IMG/VR virus record: IMGVR_UViG_3300021400_000341
Coordinates: 2,595-66,594 of that record
Length of the DNA: 64,000 bases
Strand: one strand, 5' to 3'
Source of the DNA: a virus
Taxonomy: Duplodnaviria > Caudoviricetes
The notes below the pieces were generated by a model. That model was not told the origin of the DNA. It ran no database searches and worked only from the letters and a program-made list of their open reading frames with translations. Every line of letters begins with the position of its first letter. Within the stretch, counting starts at the first letter, position 1. Of the stretch, positions 30,892 through 61,233 are shown one piece after another. The position numbers and the translations under genes are program-made.

Positions 30892-32760
30892 ATGCATGAT
30901 ATACATGATATGTTTAGTGAATTCAATTTAGATATTGCTTTATTAGAAAGTGATGTGGATGCTAAGATAAATAGATATTTATCTAAAAAATATTTATACT
31001 ATACAGTAGAAGAAACTGAAAGTGAAGGTAAAAACCTTATTTCAGAGGCTACTGAATTTATTCGTAAGATAATTGAAAAAGTTAAAGAATTTTTTAAAAA
31101 CCTTATTGAAAAAATATCTAAAAAAATAATTGAGGCTAAAGAGTTATTAACCGATAGAGTGGAAATCGAAAATGCTTTAGTTGATATAAAAAATATTAAT
31201 GGTACATTTACTATTTTTGATAGGGTTAAATTTATAAATGCTTATGAAAAATTTAGAAAAGAAGTAATAAATCTGTATAAATCAGATATCCCGATTGATG
31301 AAAAAGTAGAGAAATTTACTGATTTAGTAAAAGAATATGATATAAATGCAACGGATATCTTTTTCTTATCAATTAATATTAAAGATAGTTTAAAACATTA
31401 TGATGATATTGTAAATAATACAGATAACGATTTATCCACTTTTAATGATAAATGTACTGAAACAGTTGATGATTTAAAATCTATCATTGTAAAAATAGAG
31501 GATGCCTCTAAGCTTAGTGCATATAAAAAGATGCTTACTAAATTTGTTGCAGTAAATAATGAATATGCTTCAACTTATATAGAGAATTCTTTTAAATCTT
31601 TAAATATCATTAAAAGAATATTACCTACATCACATAAAGAAATAGAAGCCATTAGAAGAAAACGTAATATGGATTTATTAAAAAATAAATATGATTATGA
31701 TGGTAAAACTATTAATGTCCGTGGTAAACGTGTACCTGTAAAGTTATATGATTCTAAAGATAATTATACTGCTGTAGATAGAATGGAAGGTGTTATTTAC
31801 TTAGCTGACGAGTTCTTCTTAGCTGATAAAGTAAATGAGGCAGAAGCTGTATTACAGCATGAAATAGGTCATGGTAGTGTACAAGCTCTTGCAAATCATT
31901 CTTTAGCTAATGAAGAATTTTTACCCAAAAGTAAAGCTTTACAATTTGTTGATAAATTATGTTATGATAAAGAATTTGAAACTCTACCTTCTGAAGTATT
32001 AAATGATATAAAATATAAAATCATTCTAAAATATGCTAAAGATACAAAAGGTCTAACTAAAAGAGATATATCTAATATAGTTAAACATAAACTAGCTAAA
32101 TATTCTAAAGGTGGTCACGCTAATCCGCTTGAGTTTGAAGCCGATTTATATGCATCTCAACATACTAAAAATAAAAATGATATTACTAATGCTGTGGATA
32201 AAGTTTATAAACCTTATCATAAATATTATATTAAAGGATACCATAAAGCATTGGACTATACAGCTAAAAAAGGACGTAATAGTGATATGAAGCAAGATTT
32301 TATAAAGGCTAGTAAAGAGGCTTTAGATGCTGAGAAACGAGGTATGGAAGATGATATTAATAGTCGTAAAGAAGCTTTAAAAGATAGAAGTATAACTGAT
32401 GATATGAAAAAAATTTATAAAGAAAATTATGATGATATTAGATTAGATATATATGAAGCATATGATAATGATGAGATTACATATGGTGAAAAAGAATATT
32501 TATTAGAAGAAGTAAATGATGCATATCATGAAAGTTTTAAAGATATATTTACGAGTAATAAAGCTAAAGAATTATTTAACAAAATAAATAAAGATAATAA
32601 ATATAATGATAAAAATGAAGATCCTACTATAACTAAAATGAAAGAAAATTTAGAAGAATTGAAAAAACGTAATGAGTATATTAACAAACTTAATGATAGC
32701 ACTGCAAAAAATCTTAACGCTATTAATAGAAGATTTGGTATAAATACTGTAATGAAATAA
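30892..32760 (+). CDS. Putative internal head protein with HExxH metallopeptidase domain and an internal copy of the shared leader
   Basis: LQHEIGH...NPLEFEADLYA; YDDIRLDIYEAYDNDEITYGEKEYLLEE at about 32428-32510. Confidence 0.6.
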   Translation: MHDIHDMFSEFNLDIALLESDVDAKINRYLSKKYLYYTVEETESEGKNLISEATEFIRKIIEKVKEFFKNLIEKISKKIIEAKELLTDRVEIENALVDIKNINGTFTIFDRVKFINAYEKFRKEVINLYKSDIPIDEKVEKFTDLVKEYDINATDIFFLSINIKDSLKHYDDIVNNTDNDLSTFNDKCTETVDDLKSIIVKIEDASKLSAYKKMLTKFVAVNNEYASTYIENSFKSLNIIKRILPTSHKEIEAIRRKRNMDLLKNKYDYDGKTINVRGKRVPVKLYDSKDNYTAVDRMEGVIYLADEFFLADKVNEAEAVLQHEIGHGSVQALANHSLANEEFLPKSKALQFVDKLCYDKEFETLPSEVLNDIKYKIILKYAKDTKGLTKRDISNIVKHKLAKYSKGGHANPLEFEADLYASQHTKNKNDITNAVDKVYKPYHKYYIKGYHKALDYTAKKGRNSDMKQDFIKASKEALDAEKRGMEDDINSRKEALKDRSITDDMKKIYKENYDDIRLDIYEAYDNDEITYGEKEYLLEEVNDAYHESFKDIFTSNKAKELFNKINKDNKYNDKNEDPTITKMKENLEELKKRNEYINKLNDSTAKNLNAINRRFGINTVMK

Positions 32761-32826
32761 TAAGTATGTACTTTAAATAAAAACAGTATATTAATAAAAA
32801 TAACATGAAAGGTGTGAATTTATACT

Positions 32827-33468
32827 ATGAGTGATTTTAATTATTTATTAAGTCAACCCCTTCCTTCAAAACTTTATACTGAAGGTCTTGATTGTTGCGT
32901 TAATAGTGAGTTAAATAATGGACCTGTTATAGATACAAGTTTAAATAATCCTGATTATCAGCCGGCACCTATGGAGGTTCCGAGAGTTCCTGATGTAGAA
33001 TTCCCTTCAACAACTCCTGTAAGTAATCCTGTTTCTACAGAGTTAACTCCTGAAGAGGATAGAAAAGTTGATGATACAATGAATGCTGTTGCTACACCAA
33101 TAATGATTCAATCTGAATTAACTGATAAAGAGATTGAGGAATTTGTTGAATCTGTTGATAGTGACATTGCTATTAATGAAGGATTATTAACTGAAAGAAC
33201 TATTGTTAGATTTGATAAGAATGCTAGAAAGAACCAGCTTATGGCTGTTGCTGTTCTTGCAGTAGCAAGAGAAAAGAAAGATCCATTATATAAAAAGCTT
33301 AATACTATTTATAAAATGGAGAGAATTATTGAAGCTAAACTTCGTAAAAAATATTATTCTCAAGCAACGAGAAAAGTTCAAGAATATCTTAAGAGAGCAA
33401 GACAGAGTAAATCCGGTATATTAGCCAGAGCAGCTGCTAAACTCTCCGGTATATTTAAAAAGAAATAA
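32827..33468 (+). CDS. Putative virion protein with acidic propeptide and basic C-terminal domain
   Basis: Late motif at 32782-32793; acidic Pro-rich N-half, K/R-rich C-half. Confidence 0.55.
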   Translation: MSDFNYLLSQPLPSKLYTEGLDCCVNSELNNGPVIDTSLNNPDYQPAPMEVPRVPDVEFPSTTPVSNPVSTELTPEEDRKVDDTMNAVATPIMIQSELTDKEIEEFVESVDSDIAINEGLLTERTIVRFDKNARKNQLMAVAVLAVAREKKDPLYKKLNTIYKMERIIEAKLRKKYYSQATRKVQEYLKRARQSKSGILARAAAKLSGIFKKK

Positions 33469-33479
33469 TTTAGTAAATA

Positions 33480-33511
33480 ATATAGAGAAGGTTATAAAAC
33501 CTTCTCTATAT
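33480..33511. terminator. Bidirectional terminator
   Basis: ATATAGAGAAGGTT-ATAA-AACCTTCTCTATAT between convergent genes. Confidence 0.8.
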
Positions 33512-33518
33512 TTATTCT

Positions 33519-34148
33519 TTAAATATCTAATTCATATTCAGGATATGAATCATAAACATACTCATTAGTATTATTCCAAGCATTATGATGTTTAGTTATC
33601 GTATTTGGATCATATTTAATATATACACTAGGATCATTTTTATAATCTTCAATAAGTTTTTCCAGTTTTTTAACAGCTACTTTATCTAATGGATGTTTTG
33701 ATTTTTGTAAAGTTTTAATTAAACTTTTTGTATAACAAAGACCAACTGGAGGAACATTGACACCCGGAAGTGAAGTTACAGCTTGATTAACTCCTACAAC
33801 ACCGAGAGTTTTTACTCCCATTCTAACTCTATTTCTTAATTTATGAGCTTTTGGTGAATTTACTTTTATTTTTTTACCAACATAATCAGCTGCTTTATTT
33901 ATTCCGTTATTAATAGGTGTATTTATTTTATCAACAACACCATCTTCTACTTTTTTACCTACATATTTTGCTGCATTTATTACTTTGCGTCCTAACTTTT
34001 TGTTTTCTTTTTCTTTATCTAATCTATCTTCTAATTCGTATGGGTCTTCTCCAACGGCTTCTAAGAGATATTCTTTTTCATCATATGAGATTTCTCCATT
34101 ATCGTATGCTTCATAAATCTCTAATCTAATACTATCATAATAATTCAT
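33519..34148 (-). CDS. Leader-bearing cargo protein (putative internal head protein)
   Basis: Starts MNYYDSIRLEIYEAYDNGEISYDEKEYLLE; ATG 34148 follows SD GAAAGGAG; late motif at 34179-34190. Confidence 0.7.
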   Translation of the reverse strand: MNYYDSIRLEIYEAYDNGEISYDEKEYLLEAVGEDPYELEDRLDKEKENKKLGRKVINAAKYVGKKVEDGVVDKINTPINNGINKAADYVGKKIKVNSPKAHKLRNRVRMGVKTLGVVGVNQAVTSLPGVNVPPVGLCYTKSLIKTLQKSKHPLDKVAVKKLEKLIEDYKNDPSVYIKYDPNTITKHHNAWNNTNEYVYDSYPEYELDI

Positions 34149-34299
34149 AACACAGTCTCCTTTCATTAGTATATAGGTTATATTAATGTTTTTAAATAGT
34201 AAAAAACATTATAATGGTTTTTATTTTAAATGATTATGATATATAATAAAAACAATATTTTAATTAAATATAATCTTATAATGAAAGGAGAGAATATGA

Positions 34300-35799
34300 A
34301 TGGGTTATCTTGAAGATATTACAAAATTCATTAAAGATGGTAGTAAATATGCTAAAGATGCTAAATCTGCTTTTGATAAGAATAGACCTTCAGGAAGTAT
34401 TGCAAAAAAAGCATTAAATGGTACTTTACAATTCCCTTGCTTAGTGTCTAATTCTATACCTATTGATATGGCAAGTACTTTAGCAAAAACCTTTGAAAGA
34501 GTATATGCATCTTTTATTCAGACATATCTATCATTAAATAGTACAGTAGATATTTCTGTAGACAAAAACCCTTCAGATTTTTTAAAGAAAATTCATAAGA
34601 ATATTAAATTGGAATCTACTGAGTTAGATATGTATGTTGAGAATTGTTTTGAAGCTGATGAGGATTTTGATAATTTATTAAGCAGAATATACAATGGTAC
34701 TACTAAAGCATATATTAATGAAAACGAAAATAAAATGATAGTTTTCAATTTATCTGAAAAATTATCTCCTGAAGTATTTCATGAAAATAAAGATTTATTA
34801 GAAGAATCCTTAAAAGAAATAGATTTTAAACCTTTTCCCAATATTGGAAATAGTCCTTTTTATGAAGGTCATTGGAATGGTGATACATATATCCCAAGCA
34901 CCTTACGTGAAGTACGTGACAATATAGTTGACAATGCGAGTAGCAGTTTAATAGGAAATGTAATAGGTGCTGTTAGAGATGCAGGTAGAGCAGCATGGGA
35001 TCAGAATAGAGGCCCCAGTAATGTTGAAAAATGGAGAAATGATCAAGATTTTAAAAAAACTGAATTGGGTGCTAAACTTAAAGGTAATTATGATTTGAGA
35101 AATGAAGTTTTAACTGCTGATAAATTTGTAATTCCTCAGATATTAAATGACCAAGATGTTAAGAAAGCTAATGAAATGCAACCTTATTTAATGCAAGTTA
35201 GGTTAATGGCTGTTAATGATGAAAATGAATTTGTACAATTCATGGATTTCATTGTAGGTATAAAGGTTGTATTACATCCAATAAAGTCTGATGAAATGAT
35301 TACTAATTTACAAAGAGTAATGCAGAATAATAATAAGTTCTTTAATTTCATTAGATGGACTACCGGTGAAAAGGCTTTCTTTAAAGATTTCTTATTTGAT
35401 ATAAAGAATATGAAATTAGATGTAGCTAATAGATCCATGGGAGCTTCAAGTTGGTGGAATACATTAAAGAGATTAAAAGATAGATCAAATTATACTACTG
35501 CATTATTCAATAGAAATCAGATGATACCAAATGCTACTATGATAATTACTTCATTTGAAGTAGATGCTCTTAGAGAAGATTTTGGTATGGATTTGAGAAA
35601 TGTTGCATATGCTATTAAATTAATGCAATCATTATTCTTAATGAGCTTTGTTATAGTTAATAATGATACAAGAACAGTTGAAATATTATATGAGGGTGAG
35701 AGATCATATCAAACATATGCTCTTGAAACTCTTGAAAGAGAAGTTACTCTTAATTCTAATAAAGTTGGTAGAGAACTTACCAGAATGATTAGTAGATAA
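34300..35799 (+). CDS. Putative virion structural protein
   Basis: SD GAAAGGAG; late motif at 34251-34262. Confidence 0.55.
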   Translation: MGYLEDITKFIKDGSKYAKDAKSAFDKNRPSGSIAKKALNGTLQFPCLVSNSIPIDMASTLAKTFERVYASFIQTYLSLNSTVDISVDKNPSDFLKKIHKNIKLESTELDMYVENCFEADEDFDNLLSRIYNGTTKAYINENENKMIVFNLSEKLSPEVFHENKDLLEESLKEIDFKPFPNIGNSPFYEGHWNGDTYIPSTLREVRDNIVDNASSSLIGNVIGAVRDAGRAAWDQNRGPSNVEKWRNDQDFKKTELGAKLKGNYDLRNEVLTADKFVIPQILNDQDVKKANEMQPYLMQVRLMAVNDENEFVQFMDFIVGIKVVLHPIKSDEMITNLQRVMQNNNKFFNFIRWTTGEKAFFKDFLFDIKNMKLDVANRSMGASSWWNTLKRLKDRSNYTTALFNRNQMIPNATMIITSFEVDALREDFGMDLRNVAYAIKLMQSLFLMSFVIVNNDTRTVEILYEGERSYQTYALETLEREVTLNSNKVGRELTRMISR

Positions 35800-35811
35800 G
35801 GAGGTGTTTTT

Positions 35812-36816
35812 GTGGCTTATTATAATTATAAACAAGATGCATTTAAAATATTAAAAGAGTCTTCAGATTTAGCTGTATATGATAATAAACATGTTAATGC
35901 TATATTTGAAGATATAAATTCTCCAGCTACTAATAATTATTTAGAGAAGTTATATTCTTCTGTAATAGACAAATCACATGTAGATTTTGGAGATATTCCT
36001 AATTCCAGAGGAAATATTGAAAAATATTCCGGATATGCAAGTATGAATGAGATACTTGATACATTAGAAGTTTTTGCTAGAGAGAAAAAATCTTCCTCAT
36101 TAGCAAATTATATTAAAATTGTAAAAGATAGTATTTCATATTTAAAAATAAATTCCAGCAGATATCAGAAAGGTTATCTTGCTAAAAATGATATTATTAT
36201 AACAGAATATAATATTATAGTATATACAGTAATACAGGCTGTAAGTACTTTATTATATGAATTTGTTGATTACATTAAGAGACCTGATCAAGATACTGTT
36301 GAAATTGTATTAAAAGATACAAAATATAAAGCAAATCTTTTCTATATTCAACAACTCGAAAAATATAATAAAATAAACTCTAATATGAAATATGCTGAAT
36401 ATTTAGATGGTATATTGGCAAATGGTAGAGAAGCTTTTACAGGTATAGAAGCTATTGGATTAGGTGCTGTGGTTGCAGTAGCTTTAGCAATAGTTCCTAT
36501 AACAAGAGAAGTTATATATCAGATATATAATATAAGATCTAAAATTTCAGATTGTCTTGCACAACAAGCATATTTCTTAGAGATGAATAAATCTATAGTT
36601 GAAGCTAATAAAGAATTTAATGCTGCTAAGAAGAAAAACATTTTAATGAGACAAGAGAAAGTTAGAAATACATTCTTAAGATTATCTGATAAGTTAAGAG
36701 TTGCTGCGGTTGATGCAGATATTAAATCAAAAACAATGCTTAAAAACGATAATCGAAGATTAACTATAGATGTAGCTAAACAACAAAGTGATAATGATAC
36801 TTTGAGTTTACTATAA
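35812..36816 (+). CDS. Putative virion protein with a hydrophobic segment
   Basis: AIGLGAVVAVALAIVPIT segment; GTG start after AAGGAGG. Confidence 0.55.
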   Translation: MAYYNYKQDAFKILKESSDLAVYDNKHVNAIFEDINSPATNNYLEKLYSSVIDKSHVDFGDIPNSRGNIEKYSGYASMNEILDTLEVFAREKKSSSLANYIKIVKDSISYLKINSSRYQKGYLAKNDIIITEYNIIVYTVIQAVSTLLYEFVDYIKRPDQDTVEIVLKDTKYKANLFYIQQLEKYNKINSNMKYAEYLDGILANGREAFTGIEAIGLGAVVAVALAIVPITREVIYQIYNIRSKISDCLAQQAYFLEMNKSIVEANKEFNAAKKKNILMRQEKVRNTFLRLSDKLRVAAVDADIKSKTMLKNDNRRLTIDVAKQQSDNDTLSLL

Positions 36817-36844
36817 AATTATTTTTAGAAAGGAGAGTTAGAAA

Positions 36845-37510
36845 ATGAATATAGAAAATCCTTTTGAGGAATTAAGTATCATTTTTAATAATACAAGTTC
36901 TAAAATAGAGGAGAATTTTCAATTTTCTGAATCACATATATCATTCTCTTTTTTAGAAATAATTAAAAATGAGTTTGATTCTTATAGTAAATTACTAAAA
37001 GAATATTTTTCAAATAACTTAGATTCTATTAATGATATATTTAATAGTCCTAAAGATGATTTTACAAATATATGTAATATAGATAATGCTATAAATATTT
37101 ATGAGGAATATTATAAAGGATTACTAGATTATATTAGAAAATATATAGATAGCAATAGTGCTGAGTTTGATGTGCATTTTGTTATGGATAAAGATAGCGA
37201 ATTTGTATCTAAGATATTTGAACCTGACCCTAATAAAATAGTAACAAAAGATGTTGCTATTTCTAATATTACAGATATTACATTAATGATAGATAATATT
37301 CTATCTGATAAATTTACAGATATAAAAAATATTCTTATGAGTATAAAGGATAGTAATAATAATTTAAATTCTGATGTATTTAAATTATTAGTATACTCTG
37401 TAAGAAATTTTATATTTAATATAATAAATAATATATTTAAGAGCTATTATCAATTATTAAATAATAATAATGATACAGATGATAGTGTAATAGAATATAG
37501 ATTATTTTAA
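36845..37510 (+). CDS. Hypothetical acidic protein
   Basis: ORF with SD GAAAGGAG in the late operon. Confidence 0.65.
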   Translation: MNIENPFEELSIIFNNTSSKIEENFQFSESHISFSFLEIIKNEFDSYSKLLKEYFSNNLDSINDIFNSPKDDFTNICNIDNAINIYEEYYKGLLDYIRKYIDSNSAEFDVHFVMDKDSEFVSKIFEPDPNKIVTKDVAISNITDITLMIDNILSDKFTDIKNILMSIKDSNNNLNSDVFKLLVYSVRNFIFNIINNIFKSYYQLLNNNNDTDDSVIEYRLF

Positions 37511-37514
37511 GAAA

Positions 37515-38708
37515 GTGAGGTATTATATTATGAGTACTTTATATGGATATATGTCTCCATTTGAATTAAAATTAGCAAGAGAAGATGCTAAACTCGAACT
37601 TGAAGGTTCTAGACTCATTTATGAATATGAAATGTTAGAAAAAGAGCATGAACTGATGTTAGAGGAAATAGAACTTAAATCCATTTTCATGGAAGGTTGT
37701 ACATCTGATGATTTATATATGATGTATGAAGATGAAAATGAGAGTAATGAAGAGAAAAAAGAAGGTATATTAACTAAAATTTGGAATTGGTTAAAGAATA
37801 TATTTAATGCTATTATCGGAAAGACTAAAGAAACTATACGTTATATTGTAGTCGATGTAAACTATGCTATTGGTTATAGTGTTGATAAGATTAATAATAT
37901 ATTAAACGATGTTGAAAACGTTATAGGTAAGTTTAAAGGTAATAAAGACGCAGAATTAACAAAAGACGACATCAAAAAATATAATCATATTTCGGCCATA
38001 GTTGATATTGATGATAACGGTAACTCTAAAATTAATGAGGATTCATATATAAATGCAATTAAAGATAAAGGATCTGTACCGGGTGATAAATTGAAAAGTG
38101 GATTTGAAAGTTTATCAAATAGATGTAAGGAGATTCTTAATACTATCGGAGATGCTACTACTGCTTTGAGTAGAAGTATTGCTGGTTTTCTTAGAGCTAT
38201 AGTATCAAGAATAAATACTACTGTTACTGTTCTACTTAACCAAATTAAAAATAAAAGCGATAATAGTGGTACTAATGAACTTGCTAATATGACAGATGAA
38301 GAAAAAAATAAAATACTCAACGGAATAAAAAATATAATAAACGATGCAAAAAATAAAATTCCTGATGAAGTTAAACAAGCATTTAAAGATGATGCTAATA
38401 AAGTATTAGATAAATTTGTTGAGAAGTTTGGTAAAAAATCTGTAGAAGTTGCAAATACATCTTCAAGTGCAGCTGTTAATTTCATAGAAAATCTATTTTC
38501 TGGAGGGGAAAATAAAGGAGAAGAACAGAAAAAAGGAGAAGAACATGTAGATCAAAATAGTGTACATGATGTAGATGATGTATATAGTTCTATATTTGAA
38601 TCATTAGATATAGATACTATTGATAGTACTTTTGAGAAGTCTTATTCAGAAAGCTATAATAATGATTTAGATGATTTCGCAAATATATTAGATGATCTCC
38701 TTCAATAA
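37515..38708 (+). CDS. Putative internal head protein (paralogue family)
   Basis: Acidic N-terminal propeptide then GILTKIWNWLKNIFNAIIG amphipathic helix shared with 38721, 39941 and 30892. Confidence 0.55.
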   Translation: MRYYIMSTLYGYMSPFELKLAREDAKLELEGSRLIYEYEMLEKEHELMLEEIELKSIFMEGCTSDDLYMMYEDENESNEEKKEGILTKIWNWLKNIFNAIIGKTKETIRYIVVDVNYAIGYSVDKINNILNDVENVIGKFKGNKDAELTKDDIKKYNHISAIVDIDDNGNSKINEDSYINAIKDKGSVPGDKLKSGFESLSNRCKEILNTIGDATTALSRSIAGFLRAIVSRINTTVTVLLNQIKNKSDNSGTNELANMTDEEKNKILNGIKNIINDAKNKIPDEVKQAFKDDANKVLDKFVEKFGKKSVEVANTSSSAAVNFIENLFSGGENKGEEQKKGEEHVDQNSVHDVDDVYSSIFESLDIDTIDSTFEKSYSESYNNDLDDFANILDDLLQ

Positions 38709-38720
38709 GAGAGGAGGATA

Positions 38721-39896
38721 TTGATTATGATGTATAATGAATTATCCTTGGATGAATATATTTTATTTACAGAACATAGTTTAAATAGGATATTCTTAAA
38801 CTTAGATAAATTATTTATGGAAAGTGATTTATTAGAAAAAGAATATGAATTAAAGTTACTTACAGAAAATCCTGATATAGATAAATTAGATAATTTCTAT
38901 TTTGAAGATACTGATGTAAAAAAGAAGTCTGATGAAATCGATATGAAAAAAGATGGATTATTTGGAAGTATATGGAAGTTACTTAAAGGCTTAATTGCTA
39001 AAGTAAAAGAATTTTTATTTGGAATTAAAAAAGAGGATCTTCCGGAAAAAGTAGAAACTCATGTTACTGTAGATAGACTAGAACAAAATACAAATACTTT
39101 ATTTCAGGCTTTAGAACAATTAAAAGCAGGTGCTAAGGATAAAGCTGAAAAATTATTAGGGTTTGCTAAAAAACATCCTGTACTAACTGCTTCAGCAATT
39201 CTTCTTATTGGTAAAAACAAAGTCAATAGAGAATGGGAAGATGCTAAAGTATATATAAATAATGTGGACCAGCGTCTAACTGAGTATGAACAATTTAAAA
39301 TAGATGATAATGATGAAGAGAAAAAAAGTCTTTTTAAGAAAATCGTGAGTGGCATTAAGGCAAATGTAGCAAAAGCAAAAGATGTTATTCATTACCATGA
39401 TGAAAAGAGAAAAGGAGGAGAAGAAAAACTTACTCCTAAAGATGGAACTGATGTTGCTGCTGAACAAAAAGAAGTTCGTGCTAAAATTGAAAAACTTCCT
39501 GAATTAAATAAATATATAGATAGTCTTAGACAAGAAATTGAAGATATTCCTAAAAAAATTGCAAATGTAGAGCTTCGATTAAGGTTTAAAGATTATATTG
39601 ATTTGGAAGATAAAGAAAGTAGTGGCAACTTAGAAACAAAACCCCGTAGCTTTAAACGGTATACAAATGAAGAAAAAAAATTAAAAGATCTAAGAGACAT
39701 GGATAAAAACGGTGAAGGGTTCAACGCATATAATCAAATAAAAAAACTTAGGGAAAAACTTAAAGTAAAAGAAGCAGAGAGAGATGCTATATATTCTGCT
39801 GCTAAATCACATAATATTAGTATAGAAAAATATTTTAAGAACTCTAAAAAAGATGCAGCTAATAAAGCTATATCTGGTGACAATTCAAAAAATTAA
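38721..39896 (+). CDS. Putative internal head protein (paralogue family)
   Basis: Acidic propeptide to NFYFE, then GLFGSIWKLLKGLIAKVKEFLFG. Confidence 0.55.
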   Translation: MIMMYNELSLDEYILFTEHSLNRIFLNLDKLFMESDLLEKEYELKLLTENPDIDKLDNFYFEDTDVKKKSDEIDMKKDGLFGSIWKLLKGLIAKVKEFLFGIKKEDLPEKVETHVTVDRLEQNTNTLFQALEQLKAGAKDKAEKLLGFAKKHPVLTASAILLIGKNKVNREWEDAKVYINNVDQRLTEYEQFKIDDNDEEKKSLFKKIVSGIKANVAKAKDVIHYHDEKRKGGEEKLTPKDGTDVAAEQKEVRAKIEKLPELNKYIDSLRQEIEDIPKKIANVELRLRFKDYIDLEDKESSGNLETKPRSFKRYTNEEKKLKDLRDMDKNGEGFNAYNQIKKLREKLKVKEAERDAIYSAAKSHNISIEKYFKNSKKDAANKAISGDNSKN

Positions 39897-39940
39897 AACT
39901 AATACAATATAATAAAATATTTAAAGAAAGGAGCTATTTT

Positions 39941-41182
39941 ATGTTAGGTGAGATTGTTAATAATATGAAGCAGATTTCAGCTATTTATGATATAAATGAA
40001 GCTAAGACTAATGCATATTACGAAGCAGCTATAAATGAGTATATAATAAATTGTAAAACTGCTCAACTTAAAGTATTTCAAGAGTCAGGAACAGAAGATG
40101 ATTTATTATATCTTGAAGCTGAAGCTGGAAAAAGTTTCTTTGATAAAATAGTTGATACTTTACAGGGTATATTAAATAATATATTAACATTTTTTAAAAA
40201 TCTTTTTGAAAAAATTACTGGTTTATTTAAGAAAAATTCTGAAAAAATAGATAAACTTGAAAAAATAGCAAAATCTAATCCTGCTATAGGTAATGCTAAA
40301 ATAGACCTGCCTGATAATAAAGCATTAAATGATAATTATAATAAAGCTATGGCTGAATTAGATAAATTAGAAGCTAAGATGAAAGCTGGTAAAGAAATTA
40401 GTGAAGATGAATTAGATAATATTGAAAAAAATTTCTTTGAAAGACATAGAAAAATATTAACTGGTGCTGGAGTTGTTGCTGGAACAGTTGTTGCAGGAAT
40501 TGCTTTATACAAGAAATTGGCTACATCTGATACTCTTAAAGGTGATAATTTCGTTGTCAATAATTTAAACAAATTGATAACATGGTGTAATTCTAAGAGA
40601 GAAAAAAATATAGATAAAGCTATATCTAAAGATACAGGTGTAAGAAACTTACCAAGTTTTATGTATGCACCTAAAATTGCAATGCTTAGAAATTCCATCG
40701 CCAGAGCTAAATCACAAGGTTTAGTATATCAAATGCAAGGATTATTAACTATACTTAAAACTTATACTGGTAAAGGTATTAGTGACACTGAGTATTCTGA
40801 TATACATCTAAGTTCTAAATTACGTCCGTTTGATGATCCTCATAGTGATAGAGTGGCGTCGGATATGGTAAAGATTAAGAATGGTAGTGATGTAAATATT
40901 GTAAAGAATATAGCCGCTAGTATGGAATCATATACAGATTATGATAATGATTTTATGAATAATTATGATAATACTGATGACGATTCATCATCAGATATAA
41001 CGGATTACGATAATAATTTAAATGAAGGATATTCAGATAAGTTTAGTGAAATAATCAATAAATTATGTACTGATGGTTTATCAGATAGAAATAAATTTAC
41101 TGAATTACAAAATAAAATATATAATAATTTGAATACATCCGATTTAGTGGATGATAATAATGACGATTCTTTTTTTAGATAA
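39941..41182 (+). CDS. Putative internal head protein (paralogue family)
   Basis: Propeptide to LLYLE, then SFFDKIVDTLQGILNNILTFFKNLFEKI; hydrophobic ILTGAGVVAGTVVAGIAL; acidic C-tail. Confidence 0.55.
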   Translation: MLGEIVNNMKQISAIYDINEAKTNAYYEAAINEYIINCKTAQLKVFQESGTEDDLLYLEAEAGKSFFDKIVDTLQGILNNILTFFKNLFEKITGLFKKNSEKIDKLEKIAKSNPAIGNAKIDLPDNKALNDNYNKAMAELDKLEAKMKAGKEISEDELDNIEKNFFERHRKILTGAGVVAGTVVAGIALYKKLATSDTLKGDNFVVNNLNKLITWCNSKREKNIDKAISKDTGVRNLPSFMYAPKIAMLRNSIARAKSQGLVYQMQGLLTILKTYTGKGISDTEYSDIHLSSKLRPFDDPHSDRVASDMVKIKNGSDVNIVKNIAASMESYTDYDNDFMNNYDNTDDDSSSDITDYDNNLNEGYSDKFSEIINKLCTDGLSDRNKFTELQNKIYNNLNTSDLVDDNNDDSFFR

Positions 41183-41225
41183 ACCTATATAAAATAAATT
41201 GTATATATGAAAGGAGACTTTAATT

Positions 41226-42050
41226 ATGTTTTATTACGAAAATGCTACTGAAAAATATGATAGTATTAAATTAGAGATTTATGAAGCATATGATAATGGA
41301 GAAATATCATATGATGAAAAAGAATATTTATTAGAAGAAAATGCCGATGATTATCTTAGTAATTATTCCGATGATTATTACTCAGAGGGTTTCGGTGATA
41401 CTTTTCATAAGATAACAAGTAAGTTTAATACAACTCCTGACAAAGATCATAAATATCATTATAATGATGAGGATGCTGTAAAAGCACAAATGATGAAAGA
41501 TTATAATGGTGCTGGCGATGATTCTGTTATAGGTAATAAGTTTAAGAAATTTGTCACTGATATATATACCGGTATGAGTCTAGGACAAACTGTAGAACAA
41601 ATAAAAGGTGATCTTAATAGGAGTAGTGTTTCATATCCCGCGGCATGGGAAAATCATGTGAATACTGTATATGCTGCACTTAAGAAGTCTGGAGGTTCTC
41701 CAACAAAGAAAGAGATCAGTGATCTCAGAAAACAGCTTATTAGTGATAAAGTTGCTAATGCTGAATTAGATGCACATTATAATGATAAAAGAACAGGAGT
41801 TACTTTAAGTGGACAAATCAAACGCGACAACGATATTAAACTTAAAAAACAACAAAAGGCTGCAAATGCTAAAAATAAATCTGAAGAACCTGATGATCCT
41901 ACTCATGCAAGACATTTGGGTAAGGTAGAAGAATTAAATAAGAAACGTGAAGCAGATAAATTAGCTGCAGACGAAAAAGCAGCTAGAGAAGAAAAAGCCG
42001 CGGAAGCTAGACGAAAATCTTTGGAGAGAAGATTTAGAATACGTAGATAA
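41226..42050 (+). CDS. Leader-bearing cargo protein (putative internal head protein)
   Basis: YDSIKLEIYEAYDNGEISYDEKEYLLEE near the N-terminus; basic coiled-coil C-terminus. Confidence 0.7.
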   Translation: MFYYENATEKYDSIKLEIYEAYDNGEISYDEKEYLLEENADDYLSNYSDDYYSEGFGDTFHKITSKFNTTPDKDHKYHYNDEDAVKAQMMKDYNGAGDDSVIGNKFKKFVTDIYTGMSLGQTVEQIKGDLNRSSVSYPAAWENHVNTVYAALKKSGGSPTKKEISDLRKQLISDKVANAELDAHYNDKRTGVTLSGQIKRDNDIKLKKQQKAANAKNKSEEPDDPTHARHLGKVEELNKKREADKLAADEKAAREEKAAEARRKSLERRFRIRR

Positions 42051-42204
42051 TAAAGATTGGATAAATATCCATAATTATAATAAATAGAGAGTGATAACAT
42101 TATTGCTCTCTATTTATTTCTTTCCATTTTAATTTTTATTACAAAAAAAGATTCCAGTACAATGTACTGGAATCTTTCTCTTATCGTTCTTCAATGATTA
42201 TTTC

Positions 42205-42396
42205 TTAGATTATTGAATCGTCAAAGTCATCTAAGAAATATTCATTTCTATTTTTATTATCACTGGTATTTTTAAATACCAGCCATCCCATAAAACCGAA
42301 TACTCCTATACCGCTAATAGCAGCTTCTATGATACTCAGATCTATACTCAACCCTTTATTGCCCGGGCCAGGCTTCATACTAAATCTATCTGTCAT
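42205..42396 (-). CDS. Small single-TM protein (63 aa)
   Basis: IIEAAISGIGVFGFMGWLVF segment; ATGA overlap with the upstream ORF. Confidence 0.65.
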   Translation of the reverse strand: MTDRFSMKPGPGNKGLSIDLSIIEAAISGIGVFGFMGWLVFKNTSDNKNRNEYFLDDFDDSII

Positions 42397-42569
42397 CTCT
42401 TTTCACCTACTTTCATAATTTTCTTAATGATAAAGTATCCTGCAGCACCAGTTAAAAATGCTATACCTAAGCCAACTTCTATTTCATTGAAATCGGCATG
42501 GTATCCTGTTGTTTTACCCCAGAAGTTTTTGTTCTCTTTGATGCTAAAGTTGTTAAAGTTATTTTTCAT
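42393..42569 (-). CDS. Small single-TM protein (58 aa), not in the ORF track
   Basis: MKNNFNNFSIKENKNFWGKTTGYHADFNEIEVGLGIAFLTGAAGYFIIKKIMKVGEKR; SD AAAAAGGA at the end of the conserved RNA leader. Confidence 0.75.
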   Translation of the reverse strand: MKNNFNNFSIKENKNFWGKTTGYHADFNEIEVGLGIAFLTGAAGYFIIKKIMKVGEKR

Positions 42570-42574
42570 TTGGT

Positions 42575-42631
42575 TCCTTTTTACAGGCTCAACTCACTGG
42601 TTGCCTGAGGGTGCTCTTGATATTATCTCCA
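42575..42631 (-). ncRNA. Conserved structured 5' leader, copy A
   Basis: GGAGAUAAUAUCAAGAGCACCCUCAGGCAAC-CAGUGA-GUUGAGCCUGUAAAAAGGA. Confidence 0.75.
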
Positions 42632-42702
42632 CACCAATATATTTATTATTTTTTATGACGCAATAAATTATAGCCGGTAAATATTATACCAGTTATAATT
42701 TT

Positions 42703-43041
42703 TTAGACGTTTCTACTAAATACTGTTAAAGCCTCTTCATTAAGTTTACCAATGTACTTAGCTTCCTTTTCACGAAGCTTTCTTAATATTATCTTATCAG
42801 ACTTTGACATATCAAAACTGATAATTACATTTAGTTCACTATCGTTAAAAGTTACTATTGTAGGTGATAGATTACCGGACTGGTGTCTTTCACCTCTATA
42901 CACGTAACAAATCCTATCAGATTCATTTTCGTGTAATTTATTTGACGGCTGTACACCATTTATTAAGGCATATGTACCGTCATTCAGCAGATAGATTTGA
43001 TAATCTTCATATCTGTTGATATGGTTCTTTAATTTAACCAT
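42703..43041 (-). CDS. Hypothetical protein (putative early)
   Basis: SD AAGGAGG; TTATACATAAT motif at 43122-43132. Confidence 0.7.
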   Translation of the reverse strand: MVKLKNHINRYEDYQIYLLNDGTYALINGVQPSNKLHENESDRICYVYRGERHQSGNLSPTIVTFNDSELNVIISFDMSKSDKIILRKLREKEAKYIGKLNEEALTVFSRNV

Positions 43042-43153
43042 TTTGAATTCCTCCTTTATGATTAAAATAAAGTGGCTATCTCCATAATGAAGATAACCAC
43101 TTCTTATTTTATTACACTAATATTATGTATAATTAAAAATACATTTAAATACA

Positions 43154-44854: not shown

Positions 44855-44908
44855 TTTATTTTTACCTCCAATATATTTTTATGTGCAATTATATAATATA
44901 TAATTTTT

Positions 44909-45790: not shown

Positions 45791-45806
45791 TTTAAATCAC
45801 CTTACC

Positions 45807-47648: not shown

Positions 47649-47712
47649 ATTTTGTATACCTCCTTTTTAAGTAAATTATATTGTTGTTAGTTTAATAATT
47701 TATTTTTATAAG

Positions 47713-48408
47713 TTATTCTGTACATGTTCGCACATAAGATAATTTAAATGGATTCTCTTTATATAATTCATTAAAATCAAATCTTAAATTACCATCATTA
47801 TCAATATTATAACTATAATCAATAGCTAAAGTAATTGAAGACATTTTTAATTGGTCTTTATCTTTTAATTTAAAAATATTTCTATAATCTGAAAAGAAGT
47901 ATGTTGAGTTGTTTTTAGTTAAATCTATCAATTCATCTATATTATAAATGAACTTATTATCTGTATTAGTTTTAGCATCTAAGTGTTTCTTTACATAAGG
48001 ATTTTCATAAGGGTAATATATGATAACATCTTTACATACTTTAAGAGTCTTTACTTTCCTTGGTACATCTAACAATAATAGATTTAATGCATGTTCATAG
48101 AATACTTCATTTGTTTTTAATTCATCCTCAAATAACTTATCTAATTCTTCATTACTTATTTTATCAGGATATCTATTTAAATCATACAGTATATTTACAT
48201 TATTTCGTTTTACATACCATTCTAATAATCCTGTTTCACTTAAATAATCTATATCTTCTAATTTTAATATTTTATATAAATTCTTATTATACTTCATTAA
48301 TGATAAAAATCTATAATAAGGAGCTTGTAACATATCAGCATATTCTATAACAACATATTCCGAATTTAAAAAAATATTAGCACTATCAGCAGGCATATTA
48401 ATAAACAC
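47713..48408 (-). CDS. Hypothetical protein
   Basis: ORF with SD GAGGTG. Confidence 0.7.
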   Translation of the reverse strand: MFINMPADSANIFLNSEYVVIEYADMLQAPYYRFLSLMKYNKNLYKILKLEDIDYLSETGLLEWYVKRNNVNILYDLNRYPDKISNEELDKLFEDELKTNEVFYEHALNLLLLDVPRKVKTLKVCKDVIIYYPYENPYVKKHLDAKTNTDNKFIYNIDELIDLTKNNSTYFFSDYRNIFKLKDKDQLKMSSITLAIDYSYNIDNDGNLRFDFNELYKENPFKLSYVRTCTE

Positions 48409-48471
48409 CTCTTTCTTGAAAATATTAGAGTATAAGAATTTCTTATACTCTAATAATATTAATTTATTAAC

Positions 48472-49170
48472 TTATAACATATCTCCTATTCCGGAAAAAC
48501 TGGATACCGGAGCATTGTAATCATTCTGTGTATTAGATTGATTACTCTGTGTATTAAAATTAGCACTTCTATTAGCTTTAAAAGAATTATCTAAATTTAT
48601 ACTATGTGCTGAATCTCCTAAAACATTAACAAAATTTTTAAATTTATTATATACAAATAATAATTCACTATAACTTGTTTCAGTCTTAGGTTCATTTGTA
48701 ATAGCATCTATTACAATCGTATTTGTATTAAATTTATAAGTATATGCATTTGTAGTATCATAACTACCATCAGTATTTACAGGAGTTAATGTTAAGTATA
48801 CATTATCTGTACCATTTTCTTTCTTATAAGAAAATGTGGTAAGTATTTTTTGTCCTTTTACGCTAACTGATATCTCTTTACCATTATCTTGGTTATTGGC
48901 ATCTAATCTGGGTAATATATATTTACCAATAGCATTTGCTAATGCAGTTGTATTTTCAACAGTAAGAGCAGTCTGAATTCTCTTATTATAATCATATTGT
49001 CTTAATCCTTCAGATGAAACATTTTGTATAGGATTAATTTTTATAGAAATTTTATCACTCCAATATGATAATTGAAGTGATGCTGTATCACCAAAAAATG
49101 TTTTTATATTAGTATTTACATTATCAATTTTATTATTATTATAATTAGTTGTATTATTATTTGCAAACAT
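48472..49170 (-). CDS. Hypothetical protein, possible ssDNA-binding protein
   Basis: Beta-rich core and low-complexity N/Q/S tail ending GIGDML; weak inference. Confidence 0.35.
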   Translation of the reverse strand: MFANNNTTNYNNNKIDNVNTNIKTFFGDTASLQLSYWSDKISIKINPIQNVSSEGLRQYDYNKRIQTALTVENTTALANAIGKYILPRLDANNQDNGKEISVSVKGQKILTTFSYKKENGTDNVYLTLTPVNTDGSYDTTNAYTYKFNTNTIVIDAITNEPKTETSYSELLFVYNKFKNFVNVLGDSAHSINLDNSFKANRSANFNTQSNQSNTQNDYNAPVSSFSGIGDML

Positions 49171-49198
49171 GTAAGTTTACCTCCTTAATTTAATTTAT

Positions 49199-49339
49199 TT
49201 ATTTTATAACAGCATTTCCACAATGTGGACATTTGTATATGAAATCTAAAGATGGTTTATAATCTGTTTTATTACCACCTACTGTAAGTTTATCCATTAT
49301 ATTACCACATTTAAAACATATGCTATTTAATGGTATCAT
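49199..49339 (-). CDS. Zn-ribbon mini-protein (46 aa), not in the ORF track
   Basis: MIPLNSICFKCGNIMDKLTVGGNKTDYKPSLDFIYKCPHCGNAVIK: two CxxC pairs. Confidence 0.7.
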   Translation of the reverse strand: MIPLNSICFKCGNIMDKLTVGGNKTDYKPSLDFIYKCPHCGNAVIK

Positions 49340-49365
49340 ATCTTTCTTCAAAATAACCCCCATTT

Positions 49366-49680
49366 CTAAAAATTATCAAGATCTAATAAATTATTGTTTT
49401 CACCTAATAAATCACCATAAGAAAGCCATCTTATAATTATATCATAAATATCAGTACATTTACTTCCTTCAACTAATAATATTTCTTGAGTATTATTTTT
49501 TACAAGATATAATTTATCAGGTTCTAATAAATCCTCATTTACATCAGTTTCAGGGTTATAATTATCATTTTCATAATGATGTACAGGATAAACAAATCCT
49601 TTTTCATATACAATCTTATCTGAATTATCAAGTGTATATATGACAGATATATTATCAGTTGTAAGTTTTATATATTTCAT
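49366..49680 (-). CDS. Hypothetical protein
   Basis: ATGA overlap with 49677-50483. Confidence 0.65.
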   Translation of the reverse strand: MKYIKLTTDNISVIYTLDNSDKIVYEKGFVYPVHHYENDNYNPETDVNEDLLEPDKLYLVKNNTQEILLVEGSKCTDIYDIIIRWLSYGDLLGENNNLLDLDNF

Positions 49681-50483
49681 ACATCATCATCCTCATCAAT
49701 ACTAAATTTACTATCTTGATATTTTTTAAGTATTCTATTTCTTACAATACTTTCTATATGATAAAGGAAATCATAATTTACCATATCAATATATTTTCTT
49801 GTAAAGTTTCCTGTTATATTAAACTTATCATATCCTTCTTTCATGAATCTTGTTTCTAATGAAGAATCATCATCACAATTATCAAGGAAATCATCTATAT
49901 CTATATTAGATTTAAGAATACTTTCTATAATAGTAGGTAATGATGATAATATGTAAACATCAACAGGGTCAATAGAATCTTTCTTAAAAGATATAGTTGT
50001 AATATCTTTTTTCTTATTTACATTATCTAAATAAGTATCTCTATTTGCTTCTATTTTATTTAATATGAAGCATATAAAATTCTGTTTTATATTTATGATA
50101 AAAAATCTATATACAAAATGAATTAAATCATCTTGTTCATCTGGTGATAAATTATCGAATTCAGGAAATCCTATGTCAAAATATTCTTTAAACATATTTT
50201 GCATAAATATATAAAAATCATCTCTTAATTCTTCTAATTTATCCAGTTCTTCATCTTCATAAATATTTGCATTGTCTTTACTCATTTTATACATATTTAT
50301 GAATGTAGTGACATGGTCTCTTTTACCATATTCAAGGACGTCTTCAAATTGAGATTCTATATTTTCCTTAATCAAATTCAAAGGCATCTCTGATAAAAGC
50401 ATATCCACATCAAATTCATTTGGTTTATATTCATCATTAATATCAAACATATTATTTATCATCCTTTCTAATAAATATTTCAT
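49677..50483 (-). CDS. Hypothetical acidic protein
   Basis: Long ORF in an operon. Confidence 0.7.
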   Translation of the reverse strand: MKYLLERMINNMFDINDEYKPNEFDVDMLLSEMPLNLIKENIESQFEDVLEYGKRDHVTTFINMYKMSKDNANIYEDEELDKLEELRDDFYIFMQNMFKEYFDIGFPEFDNLSPDEQDDLIHFVYRFFIINIKQNFICFILNKIEANRDTYLDNVNKKKDITTISFKKDSIDPVDVYILSSLPTIIESILKSNIDIDDFLDNCDDDSSLETRFMKEGYDKFNITGNFTRKYIDMVNYDFLYHIESIVRNRILKKYQDSKFSIDEDDDV

Positions 50484-50558
50484 TTAGTAAATGGTTATTG
50501 TGTATATTTAAAAATATATTTAGTTATAATATGGATTAATATTAATATCACTTTACAA

Positions 50559-50589
50559 AAAGACTGAGGGAATTTCCCTCAGTCTTTTA
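50559..50589. terminator. Terminator after infA
   Basis: AAAAGACTGAGGGAATTTCCCTCAGTCTTTT. Confidence 0.8.
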
Positions 50590-50590
50590 T

Positions 50591-50809
50591 TTACTTAATT
50601 CTATATATTATTCTACCCTTTTTAGTATCATAAGGAGATACCTCTATTTTCACTTTATCCCCTCTTACTATATTAATGTGATTAATTCTTAATTTACCTG
50701 CTAATGTACACTCAACAAGTAAATCATCTATATCGTCAACTTTTACAACTGATATATTAGGTCTTATATCTATTACTTCACCTGTAAAAACTAAATCACT
50801 TTTAGACAT
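50591..50809 (-). CDS. infA: Translation initiation factor IF-1
   Basis: GEVIDIRPN...CTLAGKLRINHINIVRGDKVKIEVSPYDTKKGRIIYR matches IF-1 over its full length. Confidence 0.92.
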   Translation of the reverse strand: MSKSDLVFTGEVIDIRPNISVVKVDDIDDLLVECTLAGKLRINHINIVRGDKVKIEVSPYDTKKGRIIYRIK

Positions 50810-55833: not shown

Positions 55834-55862
55834 AAAGAAGTTGGGAATATCCCAACTTCTCT
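55834..55862. terminator. Terminator after the beta' C-half gene
   Basis: AAGAAGTTGGGAATATCCCAACTTCTT. Confidence 0.8.
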
Positions 55863-55865
55863 TAA

Positions 55866-58335: not shown

Positions 58336-58448
58336 TTGTTATTGTACCTCCTTAATTTTAATTAACTTATAGTTTTTATAAATATATTTTATAATACCTA
58401 AAGATAATATATAAATTATCTGAACTTTTATATAAAATATATAGAAAG

Positions 58449-59045: not shown

Positions 59046-59179
59046 ATTAAGTCTATGTTTTTTCATACCTCCTTAAAAGTCCACATACAAGAATTACTGC
59101 CACTTGTATGTGGACGCCTTCTGTTACTCAAATATATTAATATAATAAAAAAATAAGGGAGCTAGTGCTCCCCCATTTT

Positions 59180-59608: not shown

Positions 59609-59613
59609 AGTTT

Positions 59614-59672
59614 CTCCTTTTACAGGCTCAACCTCTTAGGGTTGCCTGAGGGGACTCTTGATATTATCTCCA
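59614..59672 (-). ncRNA. Conserved structured 5' leader, copy B
   Basis: GGAGAUAAUAUCAAGAGUCCCCUCAGGCAACC-CUAAGA-GGUUGAGCCUGUAAAAGGAG. Confidence 0.75.
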
Positions 59673-59797
59673 TCCCATAATTAATTATTTTTATTATACT
59701 TTTATTATGTATAATCAAAAAAAAAACAAAATACGCTATATTTTTGATAGTAGAAAACATTACTATAACCTATATACTAATGAAAGGAGACTATGTT

Positions 59798-60430
59798 ATG
59801 AATTATTATGATAATATTAAATTAGAGATTTACGAAGCATACGATAATGGTGAAATAAGTTATGATGAAAAAGAATATTTATTGGAAGAAGTAAATGAAG
59901 TAATATATGAAGATAGTAAAGATGTATTTAAAGCTGCTGGTATTGGTGCAGCAATAGGAGGAGCAATAGGTGCATTTAAAGGTTATAAATCATCCAAAAA
60001 ACCTAAAGATGTAACTATGAAAGATGTATGTATTGAAGATTTTAATAATACTTCAGAAGGTAAAAAACTTTTAACTGTGATAAATACAATGTATGATGAA
60101 ATTTTAGCAACAAAGCTTAAATTGGATAGATATTGTAATTCAGGTAGAACTTATTCAGATAAATCTTATGGTGATATATTAAAACTCAATATTAAAGAAC
60201 TGAATGATAAAATGCAAGAAACAACAGATAAATATAATGAAAAATTAAAAGAATATTTAGATGAGCATTTAGAAGAATGTAAGGATGACCCCGAACATTT
60301 AGATAGATTAAAAGAACTTAAAAAGAAAGTAAAATCTGAGATGTGGAAAAATATTGGAAAGTCTACTTCAAAATCCATGGATGGAGGATTTAGAGTTGGT
60401 CTTGGTTATGGTGTTATAAAAAATCTTTAA
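59798..60430 (+). CDS. Leader-bearing cargo protein (putative internal head protein)
   Basis: MNYYDNIKLEIYEAYDNGEISYDEKEYLLEEVNEVIYED; start at ATG 59798 after GAAAGGAG; late motif at 59756-59767. Confidence 0.7.
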   Translation: MNYYDNIKLEIYEAYDNGEISYDEKEYLLEEVNEVIYEDSKDVFKAAGIGAAIGGAIGAFKGYKSSKKPKDVTMKDVCIEDFNNTSEGKKLLTVINTMYDEILATKLKLDRYCNSGRTYSDKSYGDILKLNIKELNDKMQETTDKYNEKLKEYLDEHLEECKDDPEHLDRLKELKKKVKSEMWKNIGKSTSKSMDGGFRVGLGYGVIKNL

Positions 60431-60458
60431 ATGATTATGATTACACAATTTGGGTATA

Positions 60459-60490
60459 AATAAGAATGAGGTTAAACCTCATTCTTATTT
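60459..60490. terminator. Bidirectional terminator
   Basis: AATAAGAATGAGGTTAAACCTCATTCTTATT. Confidence 0.8.
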
Positions 60491-60506
60491 AATTATAAGT
60501 ATTTTT

Positions 60507-60644
60507 TTAATTCATATTACTCAATTTCTTTTTAGCCATTTCTATAGCTTCTTTTTTACTAAATCCAGCATTTATGAATTTTTTAACTAATTTATTAAGT
60601 TTCAAATATTTATTAGGTTTCTTATTAGCAAGTTTATCTGGCAT
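60507..60644 (-). CDS. Small basic protein (45 aa), not in the ORF track
   Basis: MPDKLANKKPNKYLKLNKLVKKFINAGFSKKEAIEMAKKKLSNMN; ends just before a terminator hairpin. Confidence 0.4.
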   Translation of the reverse strand: MPDKLANKKPNKYLKLNKLVKKFINAGFSKKEAIEMAKKKLSNMN

Positions 60645-60825
60645 TGATGTTTTTCTAGCTTAGCTCTATCTCTCTATCCCTTATATAATCCATTTTTAGA
60701 CCATTATCAAATGAATAATAAGTATTTACATTATTATTAAGACTAAAGAAAAAATAAATTCATTATAAAAATATAGGCTGATATTAATATCAGCCTATAT
60801 TTTATAGTTATATGTAATAAAATTA

Positions 60826-61233
60826 TTATTTATAAATATCATCTAATAAAGAATTGAATACAGATTCACCCATTATTTTATTTACCTCATTTGAAAATTT
60901 ACCAAAATCTGTAACATTATCAATTCTACCACCAGAAGCTTTACGTACTATTTCTCTATATCTACTAGCAGGTACGTCCTCAGGATTCTTATAACCCATA
61001 TCCATAATTACCTTTAGCATATTTCTAGGCGATATATGGTATTGATTCATGAGTTTTTTTATTTCACGGGGATAACCACGATCAGACAAGCGATTATATC
61101 CAAATCTATTCGCAGCATCCTCATATATTACTTCATTTACTTCCTCTAAGAGGTATTCTTTTTCATTATATGATATCTCTCCATTATCATATGCTTCATA
61201 GATATCTAATTTAATATTATCATAATAATTCAT
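60826..61233 (-). CDS. Leader-bearing cargo protein (putative internal head protein)
   Basis: MNYYDNIKLDIYEAYDNGEISYNEKEYLLEEVNEVIYED; late motif at 61267-61278. Confidence 0.7.
   Translation of the reverse strand: MNYYDNIKLDIYEAYDNGEISYNEKEYLLEEVNEVIYEDAANRFGYNRLSDRGYPREIKKLMNQYHISPRNMLKVIMDMGYKNPEDVPASRYREIVRKASGGRIDNVTDFGKFSNEVNKIMGESVFNSLLDDIYK

Follow-up and report, generated by a model that had tools for sequence, protein, structure and literature searches.

What is the role of a short protein sequence that recurs, almost unchanged, on proteins that otherwise appear unrelated? This question is raised by a stretch of 64,000 nt of viral DNA (hereafter the window; bases 2595-66594 of the 66.6-kb IMG/VR contig IMGVR_UViG_3300021400_000341, CheckV completeness 28%), in which an acidic module of about 30 residues, with the consensus MNYYDxIKLEIYEAYDNGEISYDEKEYLLE, is found on five proteins, here named c1 to c5; a sixth carrier, c6, lies elsewhere on the contig. 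In an earlier note, the module was regarded as part of a portable unit of promoter, ribosome-binding site and leader that turns arbitrary genes into packaged and injected effectors. Our analysis supported its portability, its presence on unrelated proteins, two variants of the cassette and the late promoters, but not the view that it is specifically an N-terminal leader. We suggest, with a probability of roughly 0.5, that the module is a portable docking tag by which its carriers could be incorporated into the virion.

Copies of the module and their cargos

First, all five near-identical copies that had been described in the window were recovered by open reading frame (ORF) listing and alignment. 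In window coordinates, the carriers and their modules are as follows:

30892-32760 (+), c1, a protein of 622 aa from the ORF list
32425-32508 (+), internal copy of the module in c1, NYDDIRLDIYEAYDNDEITYGEKEYLLE, found by pattern, alignment and profile
33519-34148 (-), c2, a protein of 209 aa with the module at residues 1-30 (34059-34148)
41226-42050 (+), c3, a protein of 274 aa with the module at residues 8-37 (41247-41336)
59798-60430 (+), c4, a protein of 210 aa with the module at residues 1-30 (59798-59887)
60826-61233 (-), c5, a protein of 135 aa with the module at residues 1-30 (61144-61233)

A degenerate DNA pattern for IYEAYDN[GD]EI matched the window five times, versus no match in 100 shuffles. 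When the entire 66.6-kb contig was translated in all six frames and searched with a profile of the module, six matches were obtained (75-88 bits; next best 7 bits). The sixth copy belongs to c6, a 109-aa protein encoded 2.5 kb ahead of the window, at contig positions 59-388. Twenty of the 30 positions are invariant in the alignment of the six copies, among them Glu24; Gly18 is present in five copies and is Asp in c1. The c1 copy is internal, and the other five are located at or near the N-terminus.

The sequences that follow the module had been described as unrelated, which is in agreement with our results: no significant BLASTP similarity was observed among the cargos, with the sole exception of c4 and c5, which share 10 further residues (EVNEVIYED). 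At the nucleotide level, the module copies are 83-89% identical and the identity falls directly afterwards to background (0.3-0.4), except in the c4/c5 pair, which is 90% identical across the next 30 nt; similarity thus ends sharply after codon 30, or codon 40 for c4/c5. Neither the module nor most of the cargos had a match when all six carriers were scanned against Pfam and PHROGs. In c1, an N-terminal helical module is followed by a metalloprotease-like domain with HExxH and EFEAD motifs (residues 241-510), the module (residues 512-539) and a basic tail of 83 residues. The c2 cargo, which has orthologs in two relatives (P0005 and P0006), is basic with a Gly/Val-rich hydrophobic stretch; that of c3 is rich in Lys, Glu and Ala and ends in RRFRIRR; that of c4 has a glycine-zipper-like segment and then helical sequence; and c5 combines a small cargo with an acidic C-terminal tail, GESVFNSLLDDIYK (60829-60870). 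The cargos had also been said to be basic, which holds for those of c2-c5 (isoelectric point 7.8-9.4) and for the c1 tail (9.1) but not for the strongly acidic cargo of c6 (4.1), with its poly-Asp/Glu tail.

Source phage, late promoters and selection on the module

The contig has a GC content of 24-30% and encodes a large terminase, a tail sheath protein, helicases and an RNA polymerase beta-like protein of 1404 aa. Two window proteins of 499 and 334 aa are homologous to g214 and g215 of Bacillus phage AR9, which are annotated in AR9 as virion proteins; weaker matches of window proteins were to Staphylococcus jumbo phage AH12 and to Fusobacterium JD-Fnp phages. No GenBank phage was matched by the region in a megablast search, and none is close at the DNA level. 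Taken together, these homologies point to an uncultured, AT-rich jumbo phage that is a distant relative of AR9/PBS1.

The AR9 late promoter has been published as AACA-N6-T(A/G) (PMC5312081). A late promoter of the form AACA-N6-TA had been noted on three copies; it was indeed present 42-45 nt upstream of the ATG in c2, c4 and c5, and we could extend it to c6:

34179-34190 (-), late-promoter motif AACATTAATATA, AR9-type by the PMC5312081 consensus, 42 nt upstream of the c2 ATG
59756-59767 (+), late-promoter motif AACATTACTATA from the motif scan, 42 nt upstream of c4
61267-61278 (-), late-promoter motif AACATATATATA from the motif scan, 45 nt upstream of c5

More generally, AACA-N6-T[AG] was found 20-70 nt upstream of 14 of the 62 crude gene calls versus 3.9% of random windows, and in three of 62 when the same upstream windows were read on the opposite strand. 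On the whole contig, the motif was often extended to AAAACAT[TA]xAxATAA. A plain count of AACA-N6-TA was discarded as evidence because it showed no window-wide enrichment (65 found versus 96 expected). Judged by this motif, the phage probably uses the promoter of an AR9-type non-virion RNA polymerase, and c2, c4, c5 and c6 would be expressed late.

The Shine-Dalgarno region had been thought to travel with the module. This is partly true: GAAAGGAG is the general Shine-Dalgarno sequence of this phage, and a full 58 nt of upstream sequence are shared (86% identity) only within the pairs c2/c4 and c5/c6. The gene c3 directly follows the gene for a 413-aa protein and has no promoter motif of its own. 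There are accordingly two promoter, ribosome-binding site and module cassettes (c2/c4 and c5/c6), a promoterless copy (c3) and an internal copy (c1).

Could the copies simply be remnants of a recent duplication or gene conversion with no shared function? The near-identical upstream regions within c2/c4 and c5/c6 would fit such an origin. So would a comparison with L014, a strain near-identical to the window phage (most proteins 95-99% identical), since over 81 nt the module DNA of its c1 ortholog is nearer to window c3 (94%) than to window c1 (85%). We considered this evidence too thin to retain gene conversion between module copies. On the other hand, codon differences among the modules are concentrated at the third position (92, versus 39 and 32 at the other two), and one Ser codon is switched between TCA and AGT. 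The Nei-Gojobori method applied to 27 codons gave a mean nonsynonymous divergence (dN) of 0.088, a synonymous divergence (dS) of 0.73 and a ratio of 0.12, values that are noisy owing to the short stretch. These values show long-term purifying selection and largely refute a recent origin; together with the conservation of the module across distinct lineages and on different cargos, they make the remnant explanation extremely improbable. The copies are, from their codon patterns, old paralogs selected at the peptide level, neither recent duplicates nor a DNA or RNA element. Almost every residue of the module is under selection, as expected for a common binding surface.

Distribution and position of the module in relatives

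A profile search of 1.84 billion representative proteins gave 33 matches at E <= 1e-3, 28 of them beyond the five of the window, and a word-based search of 5.8 billion proteins found eight. All database matches came from metagenome assemblies or uncultured sequences. The earlier note had proposed a profile search of phage genomes as a way to catalogue cargos; varied cargos were indeed found in uncultured relatives, but nothing was found in the genomes of AR9, AH12 and JD-Fnp1. Similarly, when the module and a two-copy relative were used as tblastn queries against 50,697 GenBank phage records, only chance matches were obtained, and pattern-based IMG/VR scans confirmed by tblastn returned nothing except the window's own record. 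A scan of JGI metagenomes gave nine loci, some of them due to chance. At locus L031, on a 48-kb contig with 35% GC, at least six degenerate copies are spread over different proteins in a 13-kb stretch, and the MNELDLIKLNIYEAYDNGEITYGEKEYLLEQ group has its own module variant on at least six cargos. Distinct lineages thus each have several cargos that bear a module variant specific to the lineage. In a close relative, a 45-aa ORF (L032:6787-6954; protein P0012) consists of the module alone and then a stop, and it could be either a cargo-less cassette or a frameshifted gene.

A second search of the 35 collected proteins revealed 54 instances of the module. An N-terminal copy is present in 26 of the 35, about nine have the module at or near the extreme C-terminus (often with the ending FLEYLDLENYE), several have internal copies only, and 15 have at least two copies, including a tandem in P0013 and three copies in P0016. 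The clearest rearrangement involves the metalloprotease-like domain. Residues 241-510 of c1 are homologous to residues 39-359 of P0011 (E 4e-17), with the invariant motifs HE[IV]GHGS and EFEADLYASQ. In c1 this domain is immediately followed by the module, whereas in P0011 it is immediately preceded by it. This placement on opposite sides shows the module to be a position-independent domain, as opposed to a leader resembling a signal peptide. The claim that the module is an N-terminal leader in particular was therefore not borne out, given the internal, C-terminal and repeated copies in relatives and the HExxH cargo that carries it on either side.

Some additional features of this domain were observed. 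It occupies window positions 31612-32421, and only three homologs of it were found. The EFEAD-type motif is similar to the ExxAD of M48 peptidases. The domain matched nothing in Pfam, PHROGs or the PDB, and no meaningful hit was obtained when c1 was searched against the PDB by sequence and by profile; the ESM Atlas offered weak leads at 0.87 for the HExxH region (ATLF, Peptidase_M90 and Phage_min_cap2). An AlphaFold2 (AF2) model of c1 residues 240-622, based on a four-sequence alignment, was of low confidence (pLDDT 47).

These data bear on the strict T4-style explanation, in which a cleavable N-terminal leader would be cut by a prohead protease at x-x-E and basic cargos would be injected as anti-defence effectors. 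The cleavage rule of T4 gp21 is (L/I)-x-E. The conserved block ends exactly in L-L-E, with I-Y-E inside it and just after it, and most family proteins do have an N-terminal copy. Propeptides of giant phages contain multiple cleavage sites (PMC5694885). In addition, ORFs resembling Peptidase_S77 (the T4 gp21 family) were present in the relatives AR9, AH12 and JD-Fnp1, just under the cut-off (E 5e-7 to 9e-4), and the carriers c1 and c2 have 79% and 71% protein identity to their L014 counterparts, versus 97-99% for neighbouring genes. Judging from these identities, the two module-bearing proteins appear to evolve unusually fast, in an arms-race-like manner. Nevertheless, copies that are internal, in tandem or at the extreme C-terminus are incompatible with an N-terminal leader, and the same is suggested by the swapped order around the HExxH cargo. 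Motifs of the form [IL]-x-E are expected by chance in such Glu-rich sequence, the c6 cargo is poly-acidic, no cargo matched a known anti-defence family in the Pfam and PHROGs scans, and no S77-type or other protease gene of this kind was found on the 28%-complete contig. Cleavage of a leader would be a sub-case of the docking tag, weakened by the C-terminal, internal and swapped copies, and in its strict form we consider it unlikely.

Predicted fold and similarity to SHOCT

The AF2 model of the two-copy relative P0027 (seven-sequence alignment) shows a helix at residues 3-16, a five-residue loop and a helix at residues 22-40, with pLDDT of about 90 in both modules and pTM of 0.48. Foldseek comparison of this model with the PDB gave no match below E 0.6, and the ESM Atlas returned generic helical hairpins only for the module. 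The module is thus predicted to be an independently folding helix-loop-helix domain. Retention of the leader as a folded functional domain had been named as an outcome that would contradict the leader proposal; the predicted structure leans towards such a retained domain. By eye, the loop fits EF-hand loop positions 5, 6, 8, 9 and 12. An EF-hand was rejected because no EF-hand family appeared in the Pfam scans and loop positions 1 and 3 are Glu and Tyr.

The SHOCT domain has about 30 residues in two helices, is of unknown function and occurs at either terminus and in multiple copies (PMC3581485). The module has the same form (about 30 residues, two amphipathic helices predicted around a short loop, conserved Gly and Glu), and sub-threshold matches to SHOCT, SHOCT_2 and DUF1707 were observed on it in distant members, the best in P0026 (21.9 bits, E 1.4e-4). 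A serious rival to the docking tag is a generic SHOCT-like interaction or oligomerisation domain that bundles carriers together, or with another partner, and has no role in capsid loading; proteins with two and three copies would suggest module-module pairing of this kind. In contrast, the SHOCT model (PF09851) missed the window copies up to E 10, and no member reached the gathering score of 27 bits, so that the module appears SHOCT-like in pattern and not a SHOCT member. A published test gave no support for oligomerisation by SHOCT (PMC3581485). Moreover, such a domain would leave the late promoters, the virion-cluster context and the pattern of multiple cargos per genome unexplained. We regard this rival as having a fairly low probability, about the same as that of the strict leader.

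Virion context and a docking-tag model

Three of the carriers lie in one block of genes, in the order c1, a PHROG virion structural protein, c2, the g214/g215 homologs, three helical paralogs and c3. The other members of the block are:

32827-33468 (+), homolog of a virion structural protein, 213 aa, between c1 and c2 (phrog_26909, E 1.9e-14)
34300-36816 (+), homologs of the two AR9 virion proteins g214 (499 aa) and g215 (334 aa)
37515-41182 (+), three paralogous helical proteins of 397, 391 and 413 aa, with an N-terminal module in common with c1
37515-38708 (+), the 397-aa protein among these, with a C-terminal acidic tail, DDFANILDDLLQ, at 38670-38705

In several relatives, the proteins that carry the module have transmembrane segments, a feature also of ejection-type virion proteins. 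Based on this context, we propose that recombination may have fused the module to many unrelated late proteins in one lineage of uncultured, AT-rich, AR9-related jumbo phages. While the particle assembles, the carriers of the module would all bind a single partner, probably the prohead core, the scaffold or the portal region, and this shared binding would bring them into the virion. As a possible later step, a head protease might remove the tag, or the cargo might be delivered into the host. We infer the binding partner, the incorporation into capsids, the removal of the tag and the delivery of cargos. The six copies within 66.6 kb (far above chance), the abrupt junctions, the late motifs and the position of c1-c3 among virion homologs all support a docking tag. 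This appears to be the most economical explanation, because there is precedent both in the capsid targeting sequence (CTS) of T4 (PMC3012670) and in the targeting propeptides of giant phages (PMC5694885).

Several points weigh against it. The presence of carriers in virions is suggested by gene context, the docking partner is a postulated one, and the observed pattern could equally arise from a general interaction domain, for example SHOCT, with no link to packaging. The genes for c4, c5 and c6 are outside the virion-gene cluster, the module has no homolog in the cultured phages searched (AR9, AH12, JD-Fnp1 and the GenBank phage records), and the late-promoter motif is carried over from AR9, not measured in the present phage. 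Furthermore, most of the distant family members are on short contigs of unclear nature. The location of c4-c6, together with the hydrophobic or transmembrane segments in several cargos and relatives, could also indicate a tag that directs proteins elsewhere than to the capsid, such as to the host membrane, a host target protein or a replication compartment. However, the module is strongly acidic and helical, with no feature resembling a signal peptide, and no supporting precedent was found, which makes such an address improbable.

A more specific version of the docking tag is that the module is a position-independent capsid-loading domain that binds one prohead receptor of AR9-like jumbo phages of Gram-positive hosts, with the carriers packaged and delivered together with the DNA; we put this forward tentatively. 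In this version, which is less probable than docking in general, any protein that gains the module at one end or the other would be packaged, and the domain would be a counterpart of the T4 CTS that is structured and of independent origin.

If the module is a virion-docking tag, it would name, from sequence alone, a set of internal or ejected proteins of an uncultured branch of phiKZ/AR9-like jumbo phages, about whose head contents almost nothing is known. The T4 principle of one address for many cargos would then have arisen independently, by means of a folded module that can act from either terminus. The HExxH metalloprotease-like domain, the proteins that look membrane-active and the poly-acidic protein would be candidates for early host takeover, and the tag might be used for loading foreign proteins into phage heads or for protein delivery.

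Other elements and neighbouring genes

The acidic C-terminal tails that had been pointed out before proved to be real. Such a tail forms the very end of c5, the 397-aa protein and three relatives (P0007, P0015 and P0017), with the short, acidic and amphipathic pattern ES[VT]F[DN]xLL[DE]xI, which looks like a second portable element. Another shared part is the N-terminal region of about 100 residues that c1 has in common with the 397-, 391- and 413-aa paralogs. This second N-terminal helical module, with the motif ...G[IL]ϕxKIWxxLKNLϕxKI..., is located at 30892-31200, 37515-37850, 38721-39050 and 39941-40250, and by analogy it may be a long propeptide as in head proteins of phiKZ and SPN3US.

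A segment of about 16.3 kb (window 34200-50590 versus L014:10230-18841) is oppositely oriented in L014, for which an assembly artefact is possible. Recombination at the module was rejected as the cause of this inversion, because the breakpoint lies between genes, just upstream of the c2 promoter, and outside the module. Three further genes were observed:

45807-47648 (-), divergent Cpn60-type chaperonin
50591-50809 (-), homolog of IF-1 (PF01176, E 3e-13)
61440-62216 (+), pentapeptide-repeat protein of 258 aa (Pfam E 3e-119), divergent from c5

Proteins of the pentapeptide-repeat family can mimic DNA.

Comparison with known systems

In T4, nothing except the CTS is conserved across a highly diverse set of internal proteins (PMC3012670). 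Like the CTS of IPI-III and Alt, the module is a short conserved peptide on otherwise unrelated late proteins, in six copies here, and it ends in a hydrophobic-x-Glu motif. The differences are considerable. The T4 peptide has about 10-20 residues, is strictly N-terminal and is unstructured, whereas the module has about 30 residues, is predicted to form a helix-loop-helix and occurs at any position or in tandem, being internal in c1 and C-terminal or in tandem in relatives. Direct reading of the alignment revealed no sequence resemblance to MKTYQEFIAE. In addition, the present phage, known here from its sequence, is AR9-like with multisubunit RNA polymerases and does not belong to the T4 lineage.

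Head proteins of phiKZ and SPN3US have conserved N-termini on diverged paralogs, for which a targeting role has been proposed (PMC5694885). These are likewise giant phages with many internal or ejection proteins, but the protein bodies are paralogous in that case (e.g., pfam12699), whereas the cargos here are unrelated; no Pfam or PHROG match to the pfam12699 inner-head paralog family was obtained for the carrier bodies. SHOCT (PF09851) shares with the module its length, its two amphipathic helices, the Gly...Glu pattern, the use of either terminus, the multiple copies and the many architectures, and differs in that all module scores fall below the gathering threshold and the window copies have no match. 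In encapsulin targeting peptides, MuF-type polymorphic toxins in phage heads and cohesin-dockerin plugs, one docking element likewise serves interchangeable cargos; this is an analogy only, with no sequence or structural relationship to the module. By comparison with these systems, the module itself appears to be new and to occur in a phage lineage other than that of T4, while the concept parallels the T4 CTS.

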